Shown here piece by piece: positions 33,634-45,877 of a stretch of DNA of 64,000 nt. The position numbers and the translations under genes are program-made. Numbering within the stretch: the stretch's first letter is position 1; each line of letters begins with the position of its first letter. The DNA comes from Tardiphaga sp. (GTDB taxonomy: Bacteria > Pseudomonadota > Alphaproteobacteria > Rhizobiales > Xanthobacteraceae). Where the stretch lies: NCBI GenBank assembly GCA_036561845.1, contig DATCUS010000223.1:7965-71964 (forward strand). The letters are read 5' to 3'. Under the pieces are notes generated by a model. That model was not told the DNA's origin. It searched no databases and saw only the letters and a list, made by a program, of their open reading frames with translations.

Positions 33634-35385
33634 TTAGCGCGATGACTGCCTGTTGGCGCGGTCCTGCAGCATCGACCGCCGCGCCAGCGCCAGCCCCATC
33701 AGCACGAAGGCCGAGGTCACCTCCGGCCCGCCCACCAGAATCCGGGTCGGCGTCTTCATCTTATTCCATTCATAGGCCCTGAATGGACCCTTTCGGCCGC
33801 CTTCGCCCAGATGCGCGACAATGCAATGCAGCGCCGGTGTGAAGCTGTTCGCCTCGGCGCCGAGGTGGCCGAGCGCGATCAGCGCCAGCGCGGCGTCGAA
33901 CACGTTCATCTCGGCTACGATCATCTGGTCCTGAACGTAGGCCAGCACGCGGGTGCGGATGAAGGCGAAGCTGCCGTCGGGATCGATCGCCTGCCGGGCG
34001 GCCAGCGGCAGCAGCAGGAACGCCGCATAGCAGCGGCCGAAATAGGCGCAGTACAGTTCCGGCAGGTAGTAGATGTGCGAGCGTGGATCGGCGAAGGCGC
34101 CGGACGCCACCAGCCGATGCTGGAAGCCGATGATCCTCTGCACGGTCTGCAGTCGCTGCGGCGTTTCCAGGATCTTCCAGCGCGCGCAGTTGCGGAAGCT
34201 GACCTCGAGAATGTCGAGGTTCAGCGTTGGATCCAGATCGTTGCCGAACGGCTGCTCGCCCTTGAGGTTGTCGATCCAGGTGACCACGCCGCCGTCGTAG
34301 TCGATATGATCGTTGAGCGGTACGGTGACCAGCGGTTCATTGGCGCCGTTGCCGATCTGATAGCCGGCGTAGAAATCCAGCAGCGGCTGGTCGAGCAGCG
34401 GGTCGGTCGAACCGGCCTGGGTCGCTGCGGAAAAAGAGCAGGCGGTGGTGTCGCAGTCGGGCACATAGACGTCGAAGCCGAGGCTGTGCTTGATCCCGGT
34501 GAAGAACTTGCTGAAGCGCGGATGCGGCGGCGGCGCCAGCGCGGTGATGACGCTGACCGTGCTGCCGTCATGGGACGGCACCTGCTCGCGGCTGGTGGTC
34601 AGACAGAACGCCACCATTTCGGAGATCGCATGGGTGGCAGCCTTCGCCTGATCGGTCGTGGCGAGGCCGGTCTCGCCAAAACTCAGCAGCGCCTCGGTGA
34701 AGAACGCATCGTAGTAGGCGGAGCGATGGCGGATCTGCACCGGCGCCCACATCGGCTCGGCGATTCCCTGCCACGGCGGATTGATCAGCCGGCTCGCCGG
34801 CGAGCGGGCGATGAAGATGCGCGCCAGGTTGAACAGCAGCGTCGAATTCTTGTAGCCGCGGGCATTGAGCCCGGTCAGCGCCATCAGGAATTCGCGGCCA
34901 TGTACGTCGGGATCGCCGATCAGGTTGAAGGCGGCATAGGTCGGAATGAAGCCGTTGCTGCCGAACGAGCGCAACAGATGCGCGCCGCAGGTGCGGATCA
35001 CATTGTCGATCGCGGCAAGATCGGGCGCTGCCGCCGATGCGCAGAGTTGCGGAGGCACGGGATGACGCAGCCTCACGCTGTCCAGCAACTCGGCCACTGG
35101 CCCACCGATCGCCGCCCAGTCCGGCGTCCTGTCATCGCGGGCGCTGATCAGCGCGTTCTGCACGGCGCGAAATCGGGCGGGATCGCGCAATTCCGGCAGT
35201 CCGGCCCGCCGCAGCAGCGGCCGCAGCACTGGATTGCCGAGGGCGGTCTTGTAGAATTTCACGATGTGGGGATCGCCGCCGTTGTGGTCGAGAAAGACGG
35301 GATCGCAGAGGTCGTAGAGCGAAGGGCCATCCTTCGACCCGGTGAGCGCCTGGCAAGCCGCACGGACGAAATGCTGGATACTCAT
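33634..35385 (-). CDS. Hypothetical protein with class II terpene cyclase-like DxDTT motif
   Basis: Start trimmed to MSIQHFV. Contains PDCDTTAC, DLDPTLNLDIL, IYYLPELYCAYFGR and VGGPEVTSAFVL. Confidence 0.75.
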   Translation of the reverse strand: MSIQHFVRAACQALTGSKDGPSLYDLCDPVFLDHNGGDPHIVKFYKTALGNPVLRPLLRRAGLPELRDPARFRAVQNALISARDDRTPDWAAIGGPVAELLDSVRLRHPVPPQLCASAAAPDLAAIDNVIRTCGAHLLRSFGSNGFIPTYAAFNLIGDPDVHGREFLMALTGLNARGYKNSTLLFNLARIFIARSPASRLINPPWQGIAEPMWAPVQIRHRSAYYDAFFTEALLSFGETGLATTDQAKAATHAISEMVAFCLTTSREQVPSHDGSTVSVITALAPPPHPRFSKFFTGIKHSLGFDVYVPDCDTTACSFSAATQAGSTDPLLDQPLLDFYAGYQIGNGANEPLVTVPLNDHIDYDGGVVTWIDNLKGEQPFGNDLDPTLNLDILEVSFRNCARWKILETPQRLQTVQRIIGFQHRLVASGAFADPRSHIYYLPELYCAYFGRCYAAFLLLPLAARQAIDPDGSFAFIRTRVLAYVQDQMIVAEMNVFDAALALIALGHLGAEANSFTPALHCIVAHLGEGGRKGPFRAYEWNKMKTPTRILVGGPEVTSAFVLMGLALARRSMLQDRANRQSSR

Positions 35386-35752: not shown

Positions 35753-36628
35753 ATGAATGTACGGCTGTTCGGCGTCACCCGCCGCTCCATCACCATCGCC
35801 GCCGCCATGGTCGGTCTGGTGTCGCTGGTGCTTGGTGCCAACGCCGCACTCAACAAACGGACCGTCGGTGCTGCGACCGCCACGGCATCGAGCACCATCA
35901 GCGACGTCGCCAGCAAAGCCTCGCGCCTCGCGCTGGTGATCGGCAACGGCCATTATCCCGACGCCAGCGCGCCGCTGACCCAGCCGATCAACGATGCCCG
36001 CGCGCTAACCACCGCCTTGCGCCACGACGGCTTCGACGTCGATGTGGTGGAAGACGCGACCCGAGACGATATGGCGCGCGCGGTGCAGCGCCTCAAGGCC
36101 AGGATCAAGCCGGACTCCACTGTGATGCTGTATTTCGGCGGCTACGGAGTCCAGGTCGGCCGCGAGAGCTACATGATCCCGGTCGATGCCGCGATCTGGA
36201 AAGAGGCCGACATCCGCCGCGACGGCGTCAGCGTCGAGGCCGTGCTCGACGTCATGAAGGAAAAGGGCGCCCACGCCAAGCTGGTGGTCATCGATGCATC
36301 GCGCCGCAATCCCTATGAGCGCCGCTTCCGCGGCTATTCGCGCGGCCTGGCGCCGATCAACGTCCCCGACAATGCGCTGATCCTGTCCTCGGCAACGCCC
36401 GGCAAGGTGGCCGACGACGCCAAGGGTGGCAACAGCCTGCTGGTCAGCGAACTGCTGAAGAACCTCAACTCCAAGGCATCCGGAGCCGAGGCAGTGTTCA
36501 CCAAGACCCGCGTCGCCGTCACCCGCGCCTCCGACGGCGAGCAGATTCCGGCGATGTCGTCGTCGCTGGTGGAAGACATTCCGTTCGGCACCGGCCTCGT
36601 CAGCACCGCCGACAAGGCCGGCAGCTAG
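35753..36628 (+). CDS. Caspase-family (peptidase C14) protein with inactive Tyr/Ser dyad
   Basis: RLALVIGNGHY and PINDARAL. YFGGYG replaces HG and DASR replaces DACR. N-terminal hydrophobic segment. Confidence 0.88.
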   Translation: MNVRLFGVTRRSITIAAAMVGLVSLVLGANAALNKRTVGAATATASSTISDVASKASRLALVIGNGHYPDASAPLTQPINDARALTTALRHDGFDVDVVEDATRDDMARAVQRLKARIKPDSTVMLYFGGYGVQVGRESYMIPVDAAIWKEADIRRDGVSVEAVLDVMKEKGAHAKLVVIDASRRNPYERRFRGYSRGLAPINVPDNALILSSATPGKVADDAKGGNSLLVSELLKNLNSKASGAEAVFTKTRVAVTRASDGEQIPAMSSSLVEDIPFGTGLVSTADKAGS

Positions 36629-36672: not shown

Positions 36673-37572
36673 CTATTTCGGCTCCGCGCTGGCGGTGATC
36701 GGCCGCACCGGGTCGCCCTCGCGCAGCAGGGCGCCGGCGCGGGCCACCACGATATCGCCTTCGGCGAGACCCTCGCGGACCTCGACCCGACCGCCTGACA
36801 TCAGCCCAACCTCGACCCGCCTTGTCTCGACGCGCTGCCGCCGGATCACCTGGACCACGGTGCCGGCGCTGCCGTACAGGATCGCCGTCAGCGGCACCGA
36901 GACGCCACAGCTTTCGCCGGTCTTGATCAGCGCGCGGGCGTAGGAATTGGCCATCAGCCGCCGCGTCGAGGTGATGGTGACGAACACCTGGCCAAGCTGG
37001 CTGTTGGGCTCCACCGTGGACGCCACCCGGCGCACCTTGCCGTCGAGTTCGCCAACGCCGATGACCTTGATCTTCGCGCTCTGGTCCGCCTTCAGCCTGG
37101 CGAGATCGCGGGTCGGCACCTGGCCGGCCAGTTCGAATTCGCTGCGCGGGATGATGCTGAACAGCGCCTCGCCCTTGCCCGATGCGACGGTGCCGGCGAC
37201 CGCAGATGACGCGCTGACCAGACCGGCGACGGAGGCTTGCACAGCCACGGCGCCGCCGTCCGGCGCGGTCAGCCGCGCCAGGGTCTGGCCGGCGGTCACG
37301 GTCTCGCCGGCATCGACCAGCACCTCGGCCACCTTCAGCCCCGGCCGGTCCGGCCGGATCGCGATCTCCTCCTTGGGAATCAGGAAGCCCGCCACTTCCA
37401 CGATGGCTGCGAAGCAGGATTTCTCCGCCTTCAGCACGGTGACTGCCGCGCCCTTCGGCGCCTCCTCGTCGGCGGCAAGACCTGGCTGCGCAGCGGCGCA
37501 CAGGACAGCCGTAACGATCAGCGTCGCCAGCTTCGGAGACGAGCGAGGCGCGGGGAACGGGCTGATCGGCAT
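36673..37572 (-). CDS. RND periplasmic adaptor (MFP) lacking the alpha-helical hairpin
   Basis: Lipoyl halves (VDAGETVTAGQTLARL / VQASVAGLV) are joined by about 8 residues. Membrane-proximal RRVEVGL…EVREGLAEGD. Confidence 0.85.
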   Translation of the reverse strand: MPISPFPAPRSSPKLATLIVTAVLCAAAQPGLAADEEAPKGAAVTVLKAEKSCFAAIVEVAGFLIPKEEIAIRPDRPGLKVAEVLVDAGETVTAGQTLARLTAPDGGAVAVQASVAGLVSASSAVAGTVASGKGEALFSIIPRSEFELAGQVPTRDLARLKADQSAKIKVIGVGELDGKVRRVASTVEPNSQLGQVFVTITSTRRLMANSYARALIKTGESCGVSVPLTAILYGSAGTVVQVIRRQRVETRRVEVGLMSGGRVEVREGLAEGDIVVARAGALLREGDPVRPITASAEPK

Positions 37573-37730
37573 GGCAATTCCGTTGGTCAATACAATCAAT
37601 CAATGGCGCGGCATGGCCGCAGTCTGACTTTAGTGAAGCCAGACAGGCGAGCCAAGCGGCCAATCCCGCAAAGCATCACCATTTTGCAGAGTGCCTCGAC
37701 GCACGAGGGGCGGATGAACCCAAGAGGCGA

Positions 37731-37949
37731 GTGATGCGACCACCGACCATGGCCGGTTTGCTCGGAGACGTTCTGCTCGCAATAGTTCGCGTCGTGATAT
37801 GGCGCTGGCTCAGTGCGCTTGCGCTCAGCGCTCTCACCTGGCTCGATACGAAGATCCCTGGGTGCCGAATGAAGATGGTGGTCGGAGGCGCGTGCGGGCT
37901 CGCGGCCTTTTTTCTAGTTCCGATTTTTGCCGGGTTGTTGGGCTTTTGA
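37731..37949 (+). CDS. Small putative membrane protein
   Basis: Two hydrophobic stretches in 72 aa. Lower-GC region, so uncertain. Confidence 0.4.
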   Translation: MMRPPTMAGLLGDVLLAIVRVVIWRWLSALALSALTWLDTKIPGCRMKMVVGGACGLAAFFLVPIFAGLLGF

Positions 37950-38110
37950 AGACAATGAAATCCAGACCCATCATCGCATTGGCAATCGGCTGTAGCGACG
38001 TCGCGCCGCAGGCGACGCCGGGCGGCGTCCGCAGACATCGCTGAAATGGCTGGAAAGTGATGCGGCTTGTGACAGACTGGCCATATCAGGTCCGGCCCCT
38101 TATCTTGTGT

Positions 38111-38138
38111 GCCGTCAGCCGTCAGCCGTCAGCCGTCA
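38111..38138 (+). repeat. Tandem heptamer (GCCGTCA)x4
   Basis: Four exact copies ending about 70 bp upstream of the Crp/Fnr GTG. Confidence 0.9.
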
Positions 38139-38209
38139 TTGACGTTCAGGCAAAGAGTGGACACCGGTTGCGACTGCATCCGGGGATCGAGCATGCGGGA
38201 TATCTTGCA

Positions 38210-38884
38210 GTGAGCAGTCAGGCCGAATTCGCCGTCATCCTGAAGATGAACCCGATGTTCGCCGATCTCGGCGCCGAGGAACTGCAGCGCATTTCCGGGC
38301 TCTGCCACACCCAGCAGCTCAAGGCCGGCGAGATGCTGTTCCAGAAAGGCGACAGCGGCGATGCGCTGTACGGCGTACGTCGCGGCCGGATCCGCATCGA
38401 GACCGGCGCCTCGGACGGATCGCGGCTGACGCTGAACTTCCAGGGGCCCGGCGACATGTTCGGCGAGGTCGCCGTGCTCGATGGCCGCACCCGCACCGCC
38501 GACGCCACCGCCGCCGAGCCCACCGAACTGTTCGTGCTGCGACGGGAGGATTTTCTCGACCATCTGGAGCGCGAGCCGCGGGTGGCGCTGAAGCTGATCG
38601 AGTTGTTGTGTCAGCGCATCCGCTGGATGAGCGAGCGGATGGAGGAATCGGTGCTGCAGCCGCTGCCGGTGCGGCTGGCGCGGCGGCTGTGTGCGCTGGC
38701 CTCCGACTTCGGCTCGGAAGTGCACATCTCGCAGGAGCAGCTCGGCGTGTTCGTCGGCGCCGCGCGCGAGAGCGTGAACCGGCAATTGCAGGCCTGGCGC
38801 AAGGACGGGATTCTCGACCTGCAGCGCGGCCGGATTCTGTTGCTCAATCTGAACGGACTGACGAAGGTCGCGAGGAACGAGTAG
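38210..38884 (+). CDS. Crp/Fnr family regulator with cNMP-binding motif
   Basis: FGEVAVLDGRTRTADA and HTH SQEQLGVFVGAARESVNR. GTG start at 38210. Confidence 0.9.
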   Translation: MSSQAEFAVILKMNPMFADLGAEELQRISGLCHTQQLKAGEMLFQKGDSGDALYGVRRGRIRIETGASDGSRLTLNFQGPGDMFGEVAVLDGRTRTADATAAEPTELFVLRREDFLDHLEREPRVALKLIELLCQRIRWMSERMEESVLQPLPVRLARRLCALASDFGSEVHISQEQLGVFVGAARESVNRQLQAWRKDGILDLQRGRILLLNLNGLTKVARNE

Positions 38885-38899
38885 GGGCATTGTTTTCTT

Positions 38900-39073
38900 C
38901 CCTCTCCCCGCCCGGCGAAGCGCAGCTTCGCTAGGCGGGGAGAGGGTGGTTCGAAGGACCGCAGGTCGTTCGAGTCGGGTGAGGGGGAGTCAGAGTTTTA
39001 TTTGAGAGTCCCCCTCACCCGACCGGCTTCGCTACGCTTCGCCGGTCGACCTCTCCCCGCAAGCGGGGAGAGG
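38900..39073. repeat. Family A REP-like composite element (opposite orientation to the 30343 copy)
   Basis: GGTTCGAAGGACCGCAGGTCGTTCGAGTCGGGTGAGGGG is close to the reverse complement of the 30343 copy's inner arm. Hairpin caps at both ends. Confidence 0.85.
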
Positions 39074-39092
39074 TGAAGAAGCTGATCGTCTC

Positions 39093-42000
39093 TTACTTAT
39101 GCCCCACCGCCGGCGGCGTGATGTCGCCGTTCTCGCCGTCGCCGGTGGAGATCAGGAGCTTCTTGCCCCAGCGCCACGACAGCTGGCCGACGTCGTCCAT
39201 CATCATGAACATCGCCGGCACGAACAGCAGCGAGAGCGCCGTCGAGAAGATCAGACCGCCGATGATGGCCAGCGCCATCGGCGAGCGGAATTCGCCGCCG
39301 GCGCCGAATGCCAGTGCCGAAGGCATCATGCCGGCGGCCATGGCGATGGTGGTCATGACGATCGGCCGCGCCCGCTTCATGCCGGCGTCGATCATCGCCA
39401 CCTCGCGGCTCTTGCCGTTACGGATCGCCTCGATGGCGAACTCCACCAGCATGATGGCGTTCTTGGTGACGATGCCCATCAGCATCAGGATGCCGATCCA
39501 CACCGGGGTGGTCAGCTGCTTGCCGGTCAACAGCAGCGCCATGATGGCGCCGCCGATGGACAGCGGCAGCGAGAACAGGATGGTGATCGGCTGCAGGAAG
39601 GTGCCGAACAACAGCACCAGCACGGCATAGACCATCATCAGCCCGGCGGAGATCGCGGTGGCGAATCCGTCGGACAGTTCATTGAGGCTCTCGGCGTCGC
39701 CGGACTGCTTGACGCTGACATTCTTCGGCAGGCTCTTCATGACAGGCAGGTCGTAGATCTTCTTCATCGCGTCGCCGAGCGCGGCGGTGCCGACCAGGTC
39801 CGCGGCCACTGTGGCCTGACGCTCGCGGTCGTAGCGGTTGATGCTGGTCGGCCCCTGGTCGAGCTTGATGTCGGCCACCACAGACAGCGGCACGCCGCCG
39901 CGGCCGCCGCCGAGCGGCACGCGCAACTGCTCGAGCACCGCGAGGTCGGCGCGAGCCGAGTCCTCGAGCTGGACACGGATCGGCACCAGCCGGTCGCCGG
40001 CGTCGAACTTGGCCAGCGCCGGGCCGACGTCGCCGATGGTGGCGACGCGGATGGTTTCCGACAGGCCCTCGGTGGAGACGCCGAGCCGTGCGGCGAGATC
40101 GGCGCGCGGCTGGATCCGCAGTTCCGGCCGGTCCAGCGAGGTCTCCGAGATCACATTGGCGATCAGCGGAATCCGCTTCATCTGCGTCGCCAGCTCGTTG
40201 GCGACGTTGCCGACGATGTTGCTGTCGGTGCCAGTCACCACCAGCGAGATGGCGCGCAAGCCGTTCTCGTCGAGGAACCAGTAGCGGATGTCCGGGACGT
40301 TCTCGAGCTCCTTGCCGATGTCGAGCTCGAGCTGGCGCTGGGTGTGGGCGCTGTCGCGCGCGCTCTTCGGCGTGTAGTTGATGATCAGCGCCGCGCGCCG
40401 CACCTCCTGGAGGCCCGGCGGCACGCGGCCGCCGTCGACGAACACGCTCACGACCTCGGGCCGCTTGCGCAAGCGGGCGGTGATCTCCTCGGTGACCTTT
40501 TCGGTGAAGGCGAGCTGCGAGCCCGGCGGCAGCTCCATCGCCAGCAGCGAGCGCGCGGTGTCCTGCGCCGGCAGGAAGCCCTGCGGCAGCAGCTGGATGC
40601 TCCAGATCGACAGCGCGAAGATGCCGAGTCCTGCCAGCACGGTCATGTAATAGTGCTTGACCGACCATGTGACGAGCCTGGTGTAGGTCTGCAGCACGCG
40701 GCCGGGCGGCGGATCGTCGTGCGGATGATCCTTGAGGAAATAGGCGGCCAGCACCGGCGTGACGAACCGCGCCGCCAGCAGCGAGAAGAACACCTGCACC
40801 GACACGGTGATGCCGAACTGCTTGAAGAACTGTCCGGCGATGCCCGACATGAAGCTGGCGGGCGCGAAGATCGCGATGATGGTGAGCGAGATGGCGATCA
40901 CCGCAAGGCCGATCTCGTCGGCGGCCTCGAGGGCCGCGCGATAGGGCGACTTGCCCATGCGCATATGGCGCACGATGTTCTCGATCTCGACGATGGCGTC
41001 GTCGACCAGGATGCCGGTCGACAGCGTGATGGCGAGGAAGCTCACGAGGTTCAGCGAGAAGCCGAGCAGGTCCATCGCCCAGAACGCCGGGAAGATCGAC
41101 AGCGGCAGCGAGATCGCGGCGATCACCGTGGCGCGGAAGTCGCGCAGGAACACGAACACCACGATGACCGCCAGGATCGCGCCCTCGAACAGAGTGGAGA
41201 TCGCGGCCTCGTAGTTGCCCTTGGTGAAATCCACCGAGGTGTCGATCAGCTTGAGATCGACGTCGGGATAGGCGGCCTTCAGCGCCTCGATGCGCTTCTG
41301 CACGGCGGCGGCGACCACCACGTCGGAGGCGCCCTTGGAGCGCTTGATGCCCAGCGCCACCACCGGCTCGCCGTTGAAGCGCGCGAAGGTGCGACGGTCG
41401 GCGACGGTATCGGTGACGGTGCCGAGGTCGTCGAGCCGCACTTCGCCACCGGCGGGCAGGCTGATCATGGTGCCGGCGAGTTCGTTCAGCGTCTTGGCGC
41501 CGGCCAGCGTGCGGATCGCCTGGTCGTTCTTGCCGATTTCGGCGCGGCCGCCGGCGAGGTCGACATTGGTGCCGCGCAGCCGCCGCGAGACATCCACTGC
41601 AGTGAGGCCGGCCGCCTGCAGGCGATCGGTGTCCAGCGACACCAGGATTTCGCGCTCGACGCCGCCGATGCGTTCGACCTGTGCGACGTTACGCACGCCC
41701 TGCAGCGCGCGCTTGACGACGTCGTCGACGAACCACGACAGCTGTTCCGGCGTCTTGCCGGGCGAGATCGCCGCATAGGTGACGATCGGCAGGCCGATCA
41801 CGTCGACGCGCTGGATCAGCGGCTCGTTGACGTTCTGCGGCAGGTTGGCGCGGACGCGGGTGATGGCGTCCTTGACGTCGTTCAGCGCACGATCGGTGTT
41901 GGTCTCCAGCGCGAACTGGATCGTGGTCAGCGACAGGCCGTCGGTGATCGAGGACGAGATGTGCCTGACGCCCTCGACGCCGGAGACGCCGTCCTCGATG

Positions 42001-42203
42001 GTCTTGGTGACCTGGGCCTCGAGCTCCGCCGGTGCCGCGCCGAACTGCGACACCGCGACCGAGATCACCGGGATGTCGGCGTTGGGCAGCCGCGTCACCG
42101 CCAGCTTGGTGAAGCTGATCCAGCCGAGCGCCAGCAGGATGATCGAGAACACGATCGACGGCAGCGGATGGCGGATCGACCAGGCGGAGATATTCAGGGA
42201 CAT
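39093..42203 (-). CDS. RND efflux permease (AcrB/AcrD/AcrF family)
   Basis: 1036 aa with 12-TM pattern. Proton-relay residues GILVDDAIV, IVTKNAI and RARPIVMTT are intact. Confidence 0.95.
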   Translation of the reverse strand: MSLNISAWSIRHPLPSIVFSIILLALGWISFTKLAVTRLPNADIPVISVAVSQFGAAPAELEAQVTKTIEDGVSGVEGVRHISSSITDGLSLTTIQFALETNTDRALNDVKDAITRVRANLPQNVNEPLIQRVDVIGLPIVTYAAISPGKTPEQLSWFVDDVVKRALQGVRNVAQVERIGGVEREILVSLDTDRLQAAGLTAVDVSRRLRGTNVDLAGGRAEIGKNDQAIRTLAGAKTLNELAGTMISLPAGGEVRLDDLGTVTDTVADRRTFARFNGEPVVALGIKRSKGASDVVVAAAVQKRIEALKAAYPDVDLKLIDTSVDFTKGNYEAAISTLFEGAILAVIVVFVFLRDFRATVIAAISLPLSIFPAFWAMDLLGFSLNLVSFLAITLSTGILVDDAIVEIENIVRHMRMGKSPYRAALEAADEIGLAVIAISLTIIAIFAPASFMSGIAGQFFKQFGITVSVQVFFSLLAARFVTPVLAAYFLKDHPHDDPPPGRVLQTYTRLVTWSVKHYYMTVLAGLGIFALSIWSIQLLPQGFLPAQDTARSLLAMELPPGSQLAFTEKVTEEITARLRKRPEVVSVFVDGGRVPPGLQEVRRAALIINYTPKSARDSAHTQRQLELDIGKELENVPDIRYWFLDENGLRAISLVVTGTDSNIVGNVANELATQMKRIPLIANVISETSLDRPELRIQPRADLAARLGVSTEGLSETIRVATIGDVGPALAKFDAGDRLVPIRVQLEDSARADLAVLEQLRVPLGGGRGGVPLSVVADIKLDQGPTSINRYDRERQATVAADLVGTAALGDAMKKIYDLPVMKSLPKNVSVKQSGDAESLNELSDGFATAISAGLMMVYAVLVLLFGTFLQPITILFSLPLSIGGAIMALLLTGKQLTTPVWIGILMLMGIVTKNAIMLVEFAIEAIRNGKSREVAMIDAGMKRARPIVMTTIAMAAGMMPSALAFGAGGEFRSPMALAIIGGLIFSTALSLLFVPAMFMMMDDVGQLSWRWGKKLLISTGDGENGDITPPAVGHK

Positions 42204-43105
42204 TACCGTACTCTCGATCGATCCAGGTCTTCGGCGAACATGGTCTTGATCTGGTCGCCGTCATGCAGCGAGGAGCCGGCGTCGGCGACCACGACTTCGC
42301 CGGCCTCGACGCCTTCGAGGATCTCGGTGGAGGTGTCCGAGGCCAGCCCGACCTTGACCCTGCGGGTTTCCACGGTGCTGCCCTTGACCACCTGCACCGT
42401 CAGATGATCGACCGCTGAACGCGGCACCGCGACGCCGCAGCTGCGCTTGGCGTCGATATTGGCGCGGGCGAACATGCCGATTCTGAGCGCGGGATTGGGC
42501 GCCAGCGACAGCCGGACGTGGCCGAGCTGGGTGACGCGGTCGATCTGCGGCGACACCAGCCGCACCTTGCCGAACAGATCGGGCTGGTCGTCGCGGCTGA
42601 TCCGCGCGGTGGCGCCCGGATTGAGCTTGAGGATGTGGATGCTGGGCACTTCGGCGTCCAGCTCGATCTCGTTGTTGATGGCGATGCGGAACATCGGCCC
42701 GGCCTGCGGCGATGCCGGCGCACCGACGGCGGTGGCGACCTGGGTGACCAGGCCGGCAGCCGGCGTGCGCAGAATGATGGGCGCGCGGGAACCGCCCGGC
42801 AGCGGCGGCGGCGTCAGCCGCGCCAGTTCCTGGTTCTCGGTGACGAGGTCGCCCTCGCGGACCATCACGTCGGTGACTTTCGCGCCTTCGGTCTCGACCC
42901 CGATCAGCGCTTCGCGCCGCGGTACGATGAAGCCGGTGACTCGCACCATGTCGGAAAAGCAGGCATTGGTGGCCTTGGCGACGATAACCATGGCGCCGCC
43001 CGGCGCGGCGGGGCCATCAGCGCTGAGCGCGGTCAAGGGCGCGGTCATCACGGCAGCCGCAACCGCCCATGTCGCGAGATGTCTGTGACGGGCAAGGACC
43101 TTCAT
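42203..43105 (-). CDS. Second RND periplasmic adaptor (MFP) lacking the alpha-helical hairpin
   Basis: VREGDLVTENQELARL-TPPPLPGGSRAP-IILRTPAAGLV. Adjoins the RND start codon. Confidence 0.85.
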   Translation of the reverse strand: MKVLARHRHLATWAVAAAVMTAPLTALSADGPAAPGGAMVIVAKATNACFSDMVRVTGFIVPRREALIGVETEGAKVTDVMVREGDLVTENQELARLTPPPLPGGSRAPIILRTPAAGLVTQVATAVGAPASPQAGPMFRIAINNEIELDAEVPSIHILKLNPGATARISRDDQPDLFGKVRLVSPQIDRVTQLGHVRLSLAPNPALRIGMFARANIDAKRSCGVAVPRSAVDHLTVQVVKGSTVETRRVKVGLASDTSTEILEGVEAGEVVVADAGSSLHDGDQIKTMFAEDLDRSRVR

Positions 43106-43271: not shown

Positions 43272-43925
43272 CTACTTGGCCGCGGTGGTCTTGTCGGCCA
43301 TGTTGACCACCTGGACGCGGCGGTTGGCCGGATCCAGCGGATGGGCAGGATCCTTTGGCTTGCTTTTGCCATAGCCGACCGTCACCAGGTCGGTGCCGGC
43401 AATGCCGTATTTCTCCACCAAAGCGCGCTTGATCGCATCGGCGCGGCGTTCGGAGAGATCCTGGTTGTAGGCCTCGCTGCCGACCGCGTCGGTATGGCCG
43501 GCCACGATGAAGGTCGAGCCCTTCAATTCGTCACTGGACAGCGCCTTGCCAAGCGCCTGCACCGCGGGCTGCGCCCTGGCGCTGATATTGGCCGAATTGT
43601 AATCGAAGGTAATTTCCAGATCGATGTTCGGCCTGGTCTGGGCCAGCGCGGCGATCTGCTCACGCTCGCCGGACGACAGCGAGCGGGTGTTGCGGTTGCG
43701 CAGGGTGTCGACGAACTTGCCTTCGGTGGCATTGACCGCCGGCTCAACCGGCGGCGTCATCGACAGGCCGCGGGTAAGCGGCTTCTTCGGCGCCAGCGCG
43801 CGCAGGATCTGGTCCGACGTCACGTCGTCGGCGGCGACGGCAAGCCCGGCGGTCAGCGACAATGCGGCGCCGACCAGGGCGATGGCGGACAATGCTTTCA
43901 GTCTGCGGTTTGCGGATCTGTTCAT
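43272..43925 (-). CDS. OmpA-family peptidoglycan-binding protein (no beta-barrel)
   Basis: Signal peptide, ITFDYNSA, GHTDAVGSEAYNQDLSERRA and NRRVQV. Confidence 0.9.
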   Translation of the reverse strand: MNRSANRRLKALSAIALVGAALSLTAGLAVAADDVTSDQILRALAPKKPLTRGLSMTPPVEPAVNATEGKFVDTLRNRNTRSLSSGEREQIAALAQTRPNIDLEITFDYNSANISARAQPAVQALGKALSSDELKGSTFIVAGHTDAVGSEAYNQDLSERRADAIKRALVEKYGIAGTDLVTVGYGKSKPKDPAHPLDPANRRVQVVNMADKTTAAK

Positions 43926-44140: not shown

Positions 44141-45646
44141 CTAGTGCACGCCATAACTGGCGAATTCCTTGACAATATTCGGATCCATCGCCTTGGCGTT
44201 GGTAATATCGAGTTCACCCTCGGCGGTGGCGCCGGTGCGCTGCTTGGCGAGGCCGCGGCCGAACAGCGACGAGGTCAGCCGCGGATTGATCTTCAGCGCG
44301 GCGTCGAAATCAGCGATGGCGTTCTTGGAGGCGCCGTTCTTCAGGTTGACCAGGCCGCGGCTGTCCAGCGCATCGACGAAATTCGGCCGTAGTCGCAGCG
44401 CCTCGTTGCAGTCCTTCAGCGCGGCCGCCAGTTCGCCGATCACGGTGCGCGCCCAGCAGCGGTTGTTGAAGGCTTCCACATCCTTGGGGTTGAGCCGGAT
44501 CGCCGCGTCGAAATCCTTGATCGCCAGCGTGTAGGCGCCCTTGCTGGCATAGACCTGGCCGCGCCGGTACAGCGCACCGGCATCCTCGGGATTCTCGGCG
44601 AGCTTGCCGTTGAGCGTCTTCATCGTCGGATCGTCGGCCAGCGCCAGCGCGATCTTGGCCTCGTCACGGACCGGCTCGGCCGGCGCTGCGGCTACGGGCG
44701 CAGCTGCGGACGGGGCCGGCGTCGCAACATCGACAGGCGCGACGGGTGCGACCGGCGCCGGTGCGACGGGAGTCGGTGGCGGCGATGTGACCGCTGCGGC
44801 GGGTGCAACGGACTCCTTGACCGGCGGCGGCACAATGTCGTCGCGCGATTTGGCGACCGCCACCGGGGTGGTGTTCTGCGCGGCCTGGCCGGGGATGAAG
44901 GAGAAATCCTCCGCCAGCGACGACGAGATCCAGGGCACCTGCTCGCTGCGCGAGGCGCGGGTGACGCCGACGCGGGTGCGGTTCAGGGTTTCCTCGGCCA
45001 TCAGGTCGGGAACGCGGATTTCCTTGAGCAACTCGCTGACGAACAGGCTGTGGTCGGTGCCGTTGTCGCTGACCACCGAACTGAGCGCAGCCGAATACAT
45101 CACCAGAGTTCCGCTCGGGGCGATCACCGGAGCGAGGCCGGCGGAAAAGCTACGGAACCGGCGCTCGAACGGATTGCGGCGAGATGCATCGAGCAGCGCA
45201 ACCTTGACGCCGGCACCGCGGCTGTTGATTTCACCCAGCACGGTCTCGAGGCTGAAGCCGTCGCGCCGCACGTCGGGTTCCGTCCAGATCTGGGCGTCCA
45301 CCGGGATCATGTAGCTCTGGCGGGCCGACTGCACGCCGTAGCCGCTGAAGAAGATCAGCGCGACCGATCCCGGCTTGATCTTACCATACATCTTGTCGAG
45401 CGCACGACGCATGGCCTCGCCGGTCAGGTTCTCGCCGATCTCCACATCGAAGCCGTCGCGCTTGAGTTCGTCGGCAAGTTCGCGGGCGTCGTTGATCGGT
45501 TCCTTGAGCGGCGCTTCGGCGTCGGGATATTTGGCGTTGCCGATCACCAGTGCGACACGTCCGGCGCGGTTGTCGGCGGCCACAGACTCGGTGGCCGGCG
45601 CGACAGACAAGGTGAGAAAGGCAAGTAACGCGAAGCGAATTTTCAT
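44141..45646 (-). CDS. Exported caspase-family protein (inactive Tyr/Ser dyad) with Pro/Ala linker and TPR repeats
   Basis: Signal peptide, RVALVIGNAKY, FFSGYG, LDASRRNPF, a PAPVAP linker and four TPR-like repeats. Confidence 0.9.
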   Translation of the reverse strand: MKIRFALLAFLTLSVAPATESVAADNRAGRVALVIGNAKYPDAEAPLKEPINDARELADELKRDGFDVEIGENLTGEAMRRALDKMYGKIKPGSVALIFFSGYGVQSARQSYMIPVDAQIWTEPDVRRDGFSLETVLGEINSRGAGVKVALLDASRRNPFERRFRSFSAGLAPVIAPSGTLVMYSAALSSVVSDNGTDHSLFVSELLKEIRVPDLMAEETLNRTRVGVTRASRSEQVPWISSSLAEDFSFIPGQAAQNTTPVAVAKSRDDIVPPPVKESVAPAAAVTSPPPTPVAPAPVAPVAPVDVATPAPSAAAPVAAAPAEPVRDEAKIALALADDPTMKTLNGKLAENPEDAGALYRRGQVYASKGAYTLAIKDFDAAIRLNPKDVEAFNNRCWARTVIGELAAALKDCNEALRLRPNFVDALDSRGLVNLKNGASKNAIADFDAALKINPRLTSSLFGRGLAKQRTGATAEGELDITNAKAMDPNIVKEFASYGVH

Positions 45647-45877
45647 CAGAAGCCGGTCCAAGCGAAAAGGCGCCGATCCCAGCTTGCGCCACGGCGACCT
45701 TACTCCAGGCTATTCGCATTATCAAACCGGTGCCGCCGGGGCGTCAATTGCCCGCAGACCTGCGACGAGTGCGACCAACGAACGCATCCTCACAACGCGA
45801 TGCCGAACATCAATACCTGACGACCACACTGTCGAGGCGGCGAGTTGTGCACGGCGAGCATGCGCAGACGCCGTCAT

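Follow-up and report, generated by a model that had tools for sequence, protein, structure and literature searches.

Gene content and arrangement of the locus

The 64,000-nucleotide stretch of Tardiphaga sp. DNA analysed here (the window; GenBank assembly GCA_036561845.1, contig DATCUS010000223.1, positions 7,965 to 71,964) carries the gene of a drug-type resistance-nodulation-division (RND) permease and the genes of two short periplasmic adaptor proteins, PAP1 and PAP2. Both adaptors lack the alpha-helical hairpin of ordinary RND adaptors and are likely to be a pair of BesA-like proteins, derived from one clade, that serve this pump. The interval 36673-43105 takes in PAP2, a Crp-type regulator on the opposite strand, the RND permease and PAP1:

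42203-43105, minus strand: PAP1, a 300-residue hairpin-less RND periplasmic adaptor (translation; HlyD_D23, HlyD_3 and TIGR01730 matches; AlphaFold model; BesA fold match)
42779-42811, minus strand: residual loop PPPLPGGSRAP of PAP1, residues 99-109, in the place of the alpha-hairpin (model and alignment)
39093-42203, minus strand: RND permease of the HAE-1 type, 1036 residues (ACR_tran, 754 bits, profile positions 2-1020)
38057-38884, plus strand: Crp/Fnr-type regulator with a cyclic-nucleotide-binding domain (cNMP_binding, 83 bits; HTH_Crp_2, 56 bits)
36673-37572, minus strand: PAP2, a 299-residue hairpin-less adaptor (translation; TIGR01730; BLASTP against PAP1; AlphaFold model)
37252-37266, minus strand: residual loop APDGG of PAP2, residues 103-107, in the place of the alpha-hairpin (model and alignment)

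The minus-strand genes follow each other in the order of transcription OmpA-family protein, PAP1, RND permease and PAP2, with the plus-strand Crp gene lying before PAP2. The OmpA-family gene is located 166 bases upstream of PAP1. The stop codon of PAP1 overlaps the start codon of the RND gene (TAATG), and through this overlap PAP1 is translationally coupled to the pump gene. The Crp gene converges on the RND gene and parts it from PAP2, which has the same orientation as the RND gene and is separated from the Crp start by 484 bases. Because the intervening Crp gene is on the other strand, PAP2 lies outside the transcription unit of the pump in this genome.

PAP1 and PAP2 lack the alpha-helical hairpin

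The lack of the hairpin was proposed in a first-pass annotation of this DNA, which quoted the junctions between the two lipoyl half-motifs of each adaptor. Both quoted strings are present in the proteins: at the junction, PAP1 reads ...ELARL-TPPPLPGGSRAP-IILRTPAAG... and PAP2 reads ...TLARL-TAPDGGAV-AVQASVAG.... The proposal holds for both adaptors, as the gap in sequence and profile matches, the AlphaFold models and the alignment with adaptors of the same genome all agree. Aligned with four ordinary adaptors of this genome, PAP1 and PAP2 lack a clear-cut block of ~65-75 residues, precisely the stretch that forms the coiled coil in the latter, and an alpha-hairpin of 65-107 residues is replaced by a loop of 11 (PAP1) or 5 (PAP2) residues. 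The match to the adaptor profile TIGR01730 is limited to positions 137-321 in both proteins (PAP2 adds a weak piece at positions 1-57), with positions ~58-136 skipped; in about twenty other adaptors of the genome the match extends over positions 1-321. PAP2 reaches 102.9 bits with this profile, above the cut-off of 94.9. The Pfam family HlyD_D23 is matched by both proteins (44.9 and 34.6 against a cut-off of 30), and HlyD_3 is passed too. PAP1 has a signal peptide, and neither protein has a lipobox. The two adaptors share 38% sequence identity (BLASTP 2e-50), are reciprocal best matches within the genome and have no other hairpin-less protein beside them among its roughly 35 adaptors.

AlphaFold models of PAP1 and PAP2, built on 44-45 relatives, are all-beta and have mean confidence scores (predicted local distance difference test, pLDDT) of 90.5 and 89.4, respectively. 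The two lipoyl strands (residues 93-98 and 110-113 in PAP1, 97-102 and 108-112 in PAP2) follow each other with no helix between them, and residues 101-110 of the PAP1 model have a mean pLDDT of 92. Structure prediction and comparison with AcrA and BesA had been suggested in the first-pass annotation as a check, and its outcome is clear: there is no hairpin, and the solved structure nearest to both proteins is that of BesA. In Foldseek, BesA (4kkt_A) ranks first for PAP1 (E 3.1e-17) and for PAP2 (E 4.8e-17, TM 0.75, root mean square deviation 3.6 Å), followed by MexA, AcrA, CusB and ZneB, which are matched via their non-hairpin domains. The models can be aligned to BesA, and to MexA, AcrA and CusB outside their hairpins, over 260-270 columns, and PAP2 keeps all three adaptor domains. 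PAP1 and PAP2 are unable to form a helical tube of the AcrA/MexA type that meets TolC tip to tip.

The RND permease

The permease is full length and aligns end to end with AcrB and MexB; its nearest solved chain is MdtB (1e-110). It is a drug-type HAE-1 protein and belongs to neither the HpnN nor the MmpL type. The sequence contains the motifs GILVDDAIVEIEN, VTKNAIMLVEF and RARPIVMTT, which we take to be the proton-relay motifs of AcrB (the aspartate pair of transmembrane helix TM4, the lysine of TM10 and the arginine of TM11). The closest paralogues of the permease in the genome (41-44% identity) adjoin ordinary long-hairpin adaptors, and one of them is also accompanied by an outer-membrane factor gene.

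A hairpin-less clade with a conserved cysteine pair

A full HMMER scan of 1.8 billion representative sequences yielded 7405 relatives. In the 105 full-length ones the length of the lipoyl linker is bimodal, with 9-45 residues in 49 rows and 73-107 residues in 56, which rules out a gene-call artefact or chance as the source of the short linkers. The latter are rich in Ala, Gly, Pro and Ser. In a tree made without the linker columns (a quick search, with an assumed root position), 47 hairpin-less rows and one further protein, P0139, form a single group (Shimodaira-Hasegawa-like approximate likelihood ratio test (SH-aLRT) support of 90; inner node 95). P0139 has the sole 73-residue linker inside the clade, and this linker is of low complexity with no coiled coil. 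The group splits into a PAP1 type (26 rows, support 99) and a PAP2 type (21 rows, support 90) and is nested among adaptors with 107-residue linkers. The simplest reading of this topology is that a single deletion would have removed the hairpin and one duplication would then have given rise to the PAP1 and PAP2 types.

Members of the clade carry two cysteines, found together in 45 of the 49 hairpin-less rows and near-invariant at both positions in the family alignments. Apart from P0139, with its low-complexity linker, no row scored as hairpin-bearing has the pair. The codons are located as follows:

42437-42961, minus strand: span between the clade-specific cysteine codons of PAP1 (C49 at 42959-42961, C223 at 42437-42439)
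37414-37416 (C53) and 36907-36909 (C222), minus strand: equivalent cysteine codons of PAP2

In the models a pair of long strands joins the barrel to the membrane-proximal domain, and the cysteines are located close to its two ends. Given this strand topology and the conservation of the residues, they probably form a periplasmic disulfide near the hinge between the barrel and the membrane-proximal domain.

The first-pass annotation regarded BesA as a rare precedent, and according to Greene et al. hairpin-less sequences occur 'rarely in proteobacteria (e.g. Legionella)' (PMC3807786). The former description makes the design look less common than it is. Full-length proteins of the PAP1 type are present in about 40 of 150 genomes of the family to which Tardiphaga belongs, in every case within the same gene cluster, and almost all of them have a PAP2 type at a distance of 4-25 kb. 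IhpB of the same family is hairpin-less too. Among 250 genomes of the order, full-span short matches come from that family only, and no hairpin-less adaptor outside it was found in 200 genomes spread over the class. By source name, the close homologues belong to Nitrobacteraceae, Tardiphaga and Bradyrhizobium; one distant member of the clade is from Methylobacterium.

The conserved gene cluster

The genes that flank the pump and its adaptors in the window are:

43272-43925, minus strand: exported OmpA-family protein with a C-terminal peptidoglycan-binding domain (OmpA, 75.8 bits; signal peptide read from the sequence)
44141-45661, minus strand: protein with a caspase domain and tetratricopeptide repeats (TPR) (Peptidase_C14, 126 bits, and TPR; synteny)
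35753-36628, plus strand: exported caspase-domain protein, divergent from PAP2 (Peptidase_C14, 134.7 bits; synteny)
33634-35385, minus strand: 583-residue protein with no Pfam match, whose gene accompanies those of PAP2 and the caspase-domain protein in many relatives

A sample of 27 related loci from about 25 genomes shares the gene order TPR-caspase, OmpA-family, PAP1, RND, Crp (opposite strand), PAP2, caspase-domain gene and gene of the 583-residue type. All related loci examined have a caspase-domain (Peptidase_C14) gene on either side of the cluster, and one of the two encodes TPR repeats as well. The Crp gene has the same position in about 20 of the 27 loci, and the OmpA-family gene is found upstream of PAP1 in about 17.

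In most genera the genes of an AsmA-family protein and of a dCache-HAMP-GAF adenylate/guanylate cyclase are located between Crp and PAP2, with PAP2 following directly after the cyclase gene (for example, L041:9423-11363 and L041:11415-13907 for the two genes). The AsmA-family gene is part of the cluster at 19 of the 27 loci. The genus Tardiphaga has neither gene in the cluster: both are absent between positions 37572 and 38057 of the window, and close copies were not found elsewhere in the genome, where the best matches have 27-33% identity over partial length. In another genome of the genus (G238, locus L026), PAP2 starts 13 bases after the RND gene.

The space that the AsmA-family and cyclase genes occupy in relatives contains, in the window, a 120-residue open reading frame (37676-38038, minus strand) between the Crp gene and PAP2. 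This frame has no family match and is rich in Arg, Ser and Ala; because of the missing match and the odd composition it is probably not a gene and is not counted as one.

The PAP2 type is also found in fusion with a cyclase. Three relatives of ~500 residues (P0174, P0194 and P0232), which fall in the PAP2-type group of the tree, combine a class III cyclase domain in the cytoplasm with a single membrane helix and a periplasmic hairpin-less module. Such fusions are 478-549 residues long and fall into at least 60 protein clusters, with Methylobacterium and Enterovirga as the named sources. In the source databases they are annotated as HlyD or RND adaptors only. A search aimed at longer PAP2 fusions returned none above 525 residues, a weak negative; the fusions of 478-549 residues were found by another route. 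Taken together, the fusions, the cyclase gene upstream of PAP2 and the cyclic-nucleotide-binding Crp gene tie the PAP2 type to cyclic-nucleotide signalling, at the level of hints.

Outer-membrane factors and the outlet of the pump

The first-pass annotation also supposed that the pump releases its cargo in the periplasm or couples to a partner other than TolC. The absence of a linked outer-membrane factor gene is in keeping with this idea, which thereby receives partial support, but both BesA and IhpB are encoded with TolC-family genes; TolC independence of the pump is no more than possible. The window's contig contains no match to PF02321. A hidden Markov model (HMM) built from the six outer-membrane factors of the genome, which detected the left-out control IhpA at 3e-22, found no such gene in about 490 kb of the 27 related loci or at positions 28001-52000 of the window. 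This model replaced a tblastn search of the related loci with the outer-membrane factor proteins of the genome, which had missed the IhpA control.

The lack of a linked channel gene is nevertheless weak evidence, because unlinked TolC proteins are common, the housekeeping TolC is near-universal and its paralogue is not co-distributed with the cluster. The genome contains at least six full-length TolC-family genes. The housekeeping one (C12:14183-15571) is present in 149 of 151 family genomes, and its co-occurrence with the cluster, being universal, is uninformative about partnership. Its paralogue (C310:9147-10577) is 47% identical to it, unlinked and patchy in the family, and was rejected as a partner on its distribution: about 20 genomes have both the paralogue and the cluster, 23 the cluster only and 10 the paralogue only. 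Many ordinary adaptor-pump pairs of this genome likewise have no linked outer-membrane factor gene, and the ordinary pump ExsFG uses an unlinked outer-membrane factor, ExsH (PMC10760861). The OmpA-family neighbour was considered as a channel other than TolC and discarded, since it combines a cleavable signal peptide with a peptidoglycan-binding domain and contains no barrel. A microoxia-induced adaptor/RND pair of B. diazoefficiens was considered as well but could not be assigned to the cluster described here.

Possible modes of action

We favour the reading in which PAP1 and PAP2 are paired hairpin-less adaptors of one pump. A long-hairpin RND adaptor would have lost its hairpin in a single deletion; the resulting clade would have gained the cysteine pair, duplicated into the PAP1 and PAP2 types and kept the two together in one conserved envelope gene cluster. 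The two proteins may surround the RND trimer at its periplasmic head, perhaps in one ring that contains both types, as with TriA/TriB. Since they offer no helical tube with which to open TolC tip to tip, the pump would either make direct contact with a TolC-family channel, in the manner proposed for BesABC, or hand its cargo to periplasmic or envelope partners. Several observations weigh against this reading as a whole. PAP1 scores 94.3 bits with TIGR01730 (profile positions 137-320), just below the cut-off; the binding of PAP1 and PAP2 to the pump is itself a prediction; the tree was made by a quick search with an assumed root, and its key node has an SH-aLRT support of only 90; and the disulfide is deduced from conservation and strand topology. 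Furthermore, an opposite-strand gene parts PAP2 from the RND gene in this genome, and in most relatives PAP2 is located ~5 kb from the RND gene, downstream of the cyclase gene; these positions mean that PAP2 may have a role other than that of a pump adaptor.

One such role would be that of a signalling module, in which the periplasmic body of PAP2 reports the state of the envelope or the pump to a class III cyclase and Crp reads the signal. The fusions in Methylobacterium and Enterovirga, those placed on the tree being of the PAP2 type, the same-strand cyclase gene directly upstream of PAP2 in most relatives and the retention of a Crp gene with a cyclic nucleotide monophosphate (cNMP)-binding domain all point this way, but the genus Tardiphaga has lost the cluster cyclase and, in the second Tardiphaga genome, PAP2 directly follows the RND gene. 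As PAP2 also retains the complete three-domain body of an adaptor and a TIGR01730 score over the cut-off, we regard signalling as its main function as rather unlikely, although the adaptor and signalling roles are not mutually exclusive. A bolder combination, in which the PAP2-type module reads the state of the pump or envelope and couples it to cNMP signalling via a class III cyclase (fused to the module in Methylobacterium, encoded beside it in most Nitrobacteraceae), Crp answers, and the whole is a TolC-independent, self-regulating envelope system, appears to us a long shot. That the short adaptors are merely decaying genes or mis-called reading frames is hardly credible: both frames are intact, residue conservation extends over about 40 genomes and, at 50% identity, over 49 clusters, the models are confident and the cysteine pair co-varies.

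Regarding the outlet, the adaptor-ringed RND trimer might itself bind the housekeeping TolC or the TolC paralogue, in which case the lipoyl domains would stabilise this direct contact. We hold this to be possible and put it forward tentatively, by analogy. The two hairpin-less adaptors whose function has been studied each have a TolC-family protein encoded alongside (BesC for BesA, IhpA for IhpB), candidate channels abound in the genome, unlinked channel genes are common for ordinary pumps, and the permease is an ordinary HAE-1 protein whose nearest paralogues are encoded beside normal adaptors. However, direct pump-channel docking has only ever been a proposal, for BesABC as well (Greene et al. 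2013, PMC3807786), and structures indicate that AcrB alone cannot reach TolC without AcrA and its hairpins (2026 review, PMC13328181). Furthermore, unlike the bes and ihp loci, none of the 27 related loci has an outer-membrane factor gene, and the TolC paralogue does not follow the cluster. Alternatively, the pump and its two adaptors could be an envelope machine independent of TolC, confined to the inner membrane and the periplasm, which passes a hydrophobic or lipid-like cargo on to partners in the periplasm or to bridge partners with no channel involved. The clade-wide lack of a linked outer-membrane factor gene fits such a machine, and so do the conserved neighbours, namely the exported peptidoglycan-binding OmpA-family protein, the two exported caspase-fold proteins and, in most genera, the AsmA-family protein. 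It is a doubtful alternative all the same, as the case is built on gene association, the genus Tardiphaga lacks the AsmA-family gene, the permease is of the drug type and not of the HpnN or MmpL type, and the cargo is hypothetical. Should the pump be TolC-dependent, the idea of direct pump-to-channel docking would be revived; should it be TolC-independent, it would show that an RND pump of the drug type can be adapted to a task within the envelope.

Comparison with known systems

Hairpin-less adaptors as such are of an already known kind. The new features are that PAP1 and PAP2 types occur together, that they share a pair of cysteines, that a linked channel gene is consistently missing, that the genes belong to an envelope cluster and that there is a link to cyclases; a literature search found no paper describing this clade. 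How a tripartite pump works without the adaptor hairpin has been a question since the structure of BesA was determined in 2013. Borrelia is a poor system in which to answer it, because Greene et al. report that they were unable to express BesB or to crystallise BesC (PMC3807786). The clade described here offers a proteobacterial test case in soil hosts, some of them genetically tractable, which contain about 35 ordinary adaptors and a housekeeping TolC as internal controls. The adaptor duplication, the clade-specific cysteine pair and the cyclase link of one type provide handles for experiments.

BesA of Borrelia burgdorferi (PDB 4KKS, 4KKT and 4KKU; PMC3807786) resembles PAP1 and PAP2 in its three-domain body, in the 9-residue loop that corresponds to the loops of 11 and 5 residues here, and in its RND permease partner. 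It matches PAP1 in one unbroken stretch of sequence (E 5e-6), but its identity to PAP1 and PAP2 is only 16-22%. Furthermore, BesA is a single adaptor encoded in the besCAB operon with the TolC homologue BesC, whereas here there are two paralogous adaptors with a cysteine pair and no linked channel gene. The nesting of the PAP clade among proteobacterial adaptors with 73-107-residue linkers suggests that its origin is independent of BesA, which itself lies outside the tree.

In the same bacterial family, IhpB (NF045680) is hairpin-less according to our alignment. IhpABC was reportedly described by Zhang and O'Brian in 2024 as a divalent-metal exporter of Bradyrhizobium japonicum. The match of the IhpB profile to each of PAP1 and PAP2 runs through the junction without a break, but the scores (52.2 bits for PAP1, 42.3 bits for PAP2) are far from the cut-off of 450, and neither protein is an IhpB equivalog. 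In contrast to the PAP proteins, IhpB is a CzcB-type adaptor of a CusA/CzcA-type pump, has no cysteine pair and is encoded in an operon with the TolC-family protein IhpA (NF045679, 822 bits). In the tree IhpB is sister to a CzcB-like adaptor that has the hairpin, which argues for an independent loss of the hairpin. The ihpABC operon is present in the second Tardiphaga genome (L037:3997-9566) and absent from the genome to which the window belongs.

AcrA and MexA share with PAP1 and PAP2 a drug-type RND pump as a partner. Unlike the latter, they are lipoproteins and have a coiled-coil hairpin of ~60-90 residues that contacts TolC or OprM.

TriA and TriB of Pseudomonas aeruginosa have hairpins and work with the outer-membrane factor OpmH. 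This system (TriABC-OpmH, PDB 6VEJ) is the top PDB sequence match for PAP1, although the alignment falls into two pieces, as expected for an insertion at the junction. Its two different adaptors serve one RND permease, and the same pairing of two paralogous adaptor genes per RND gene is found here, the pair being present in most of the cluster-bearing genomes sampled.

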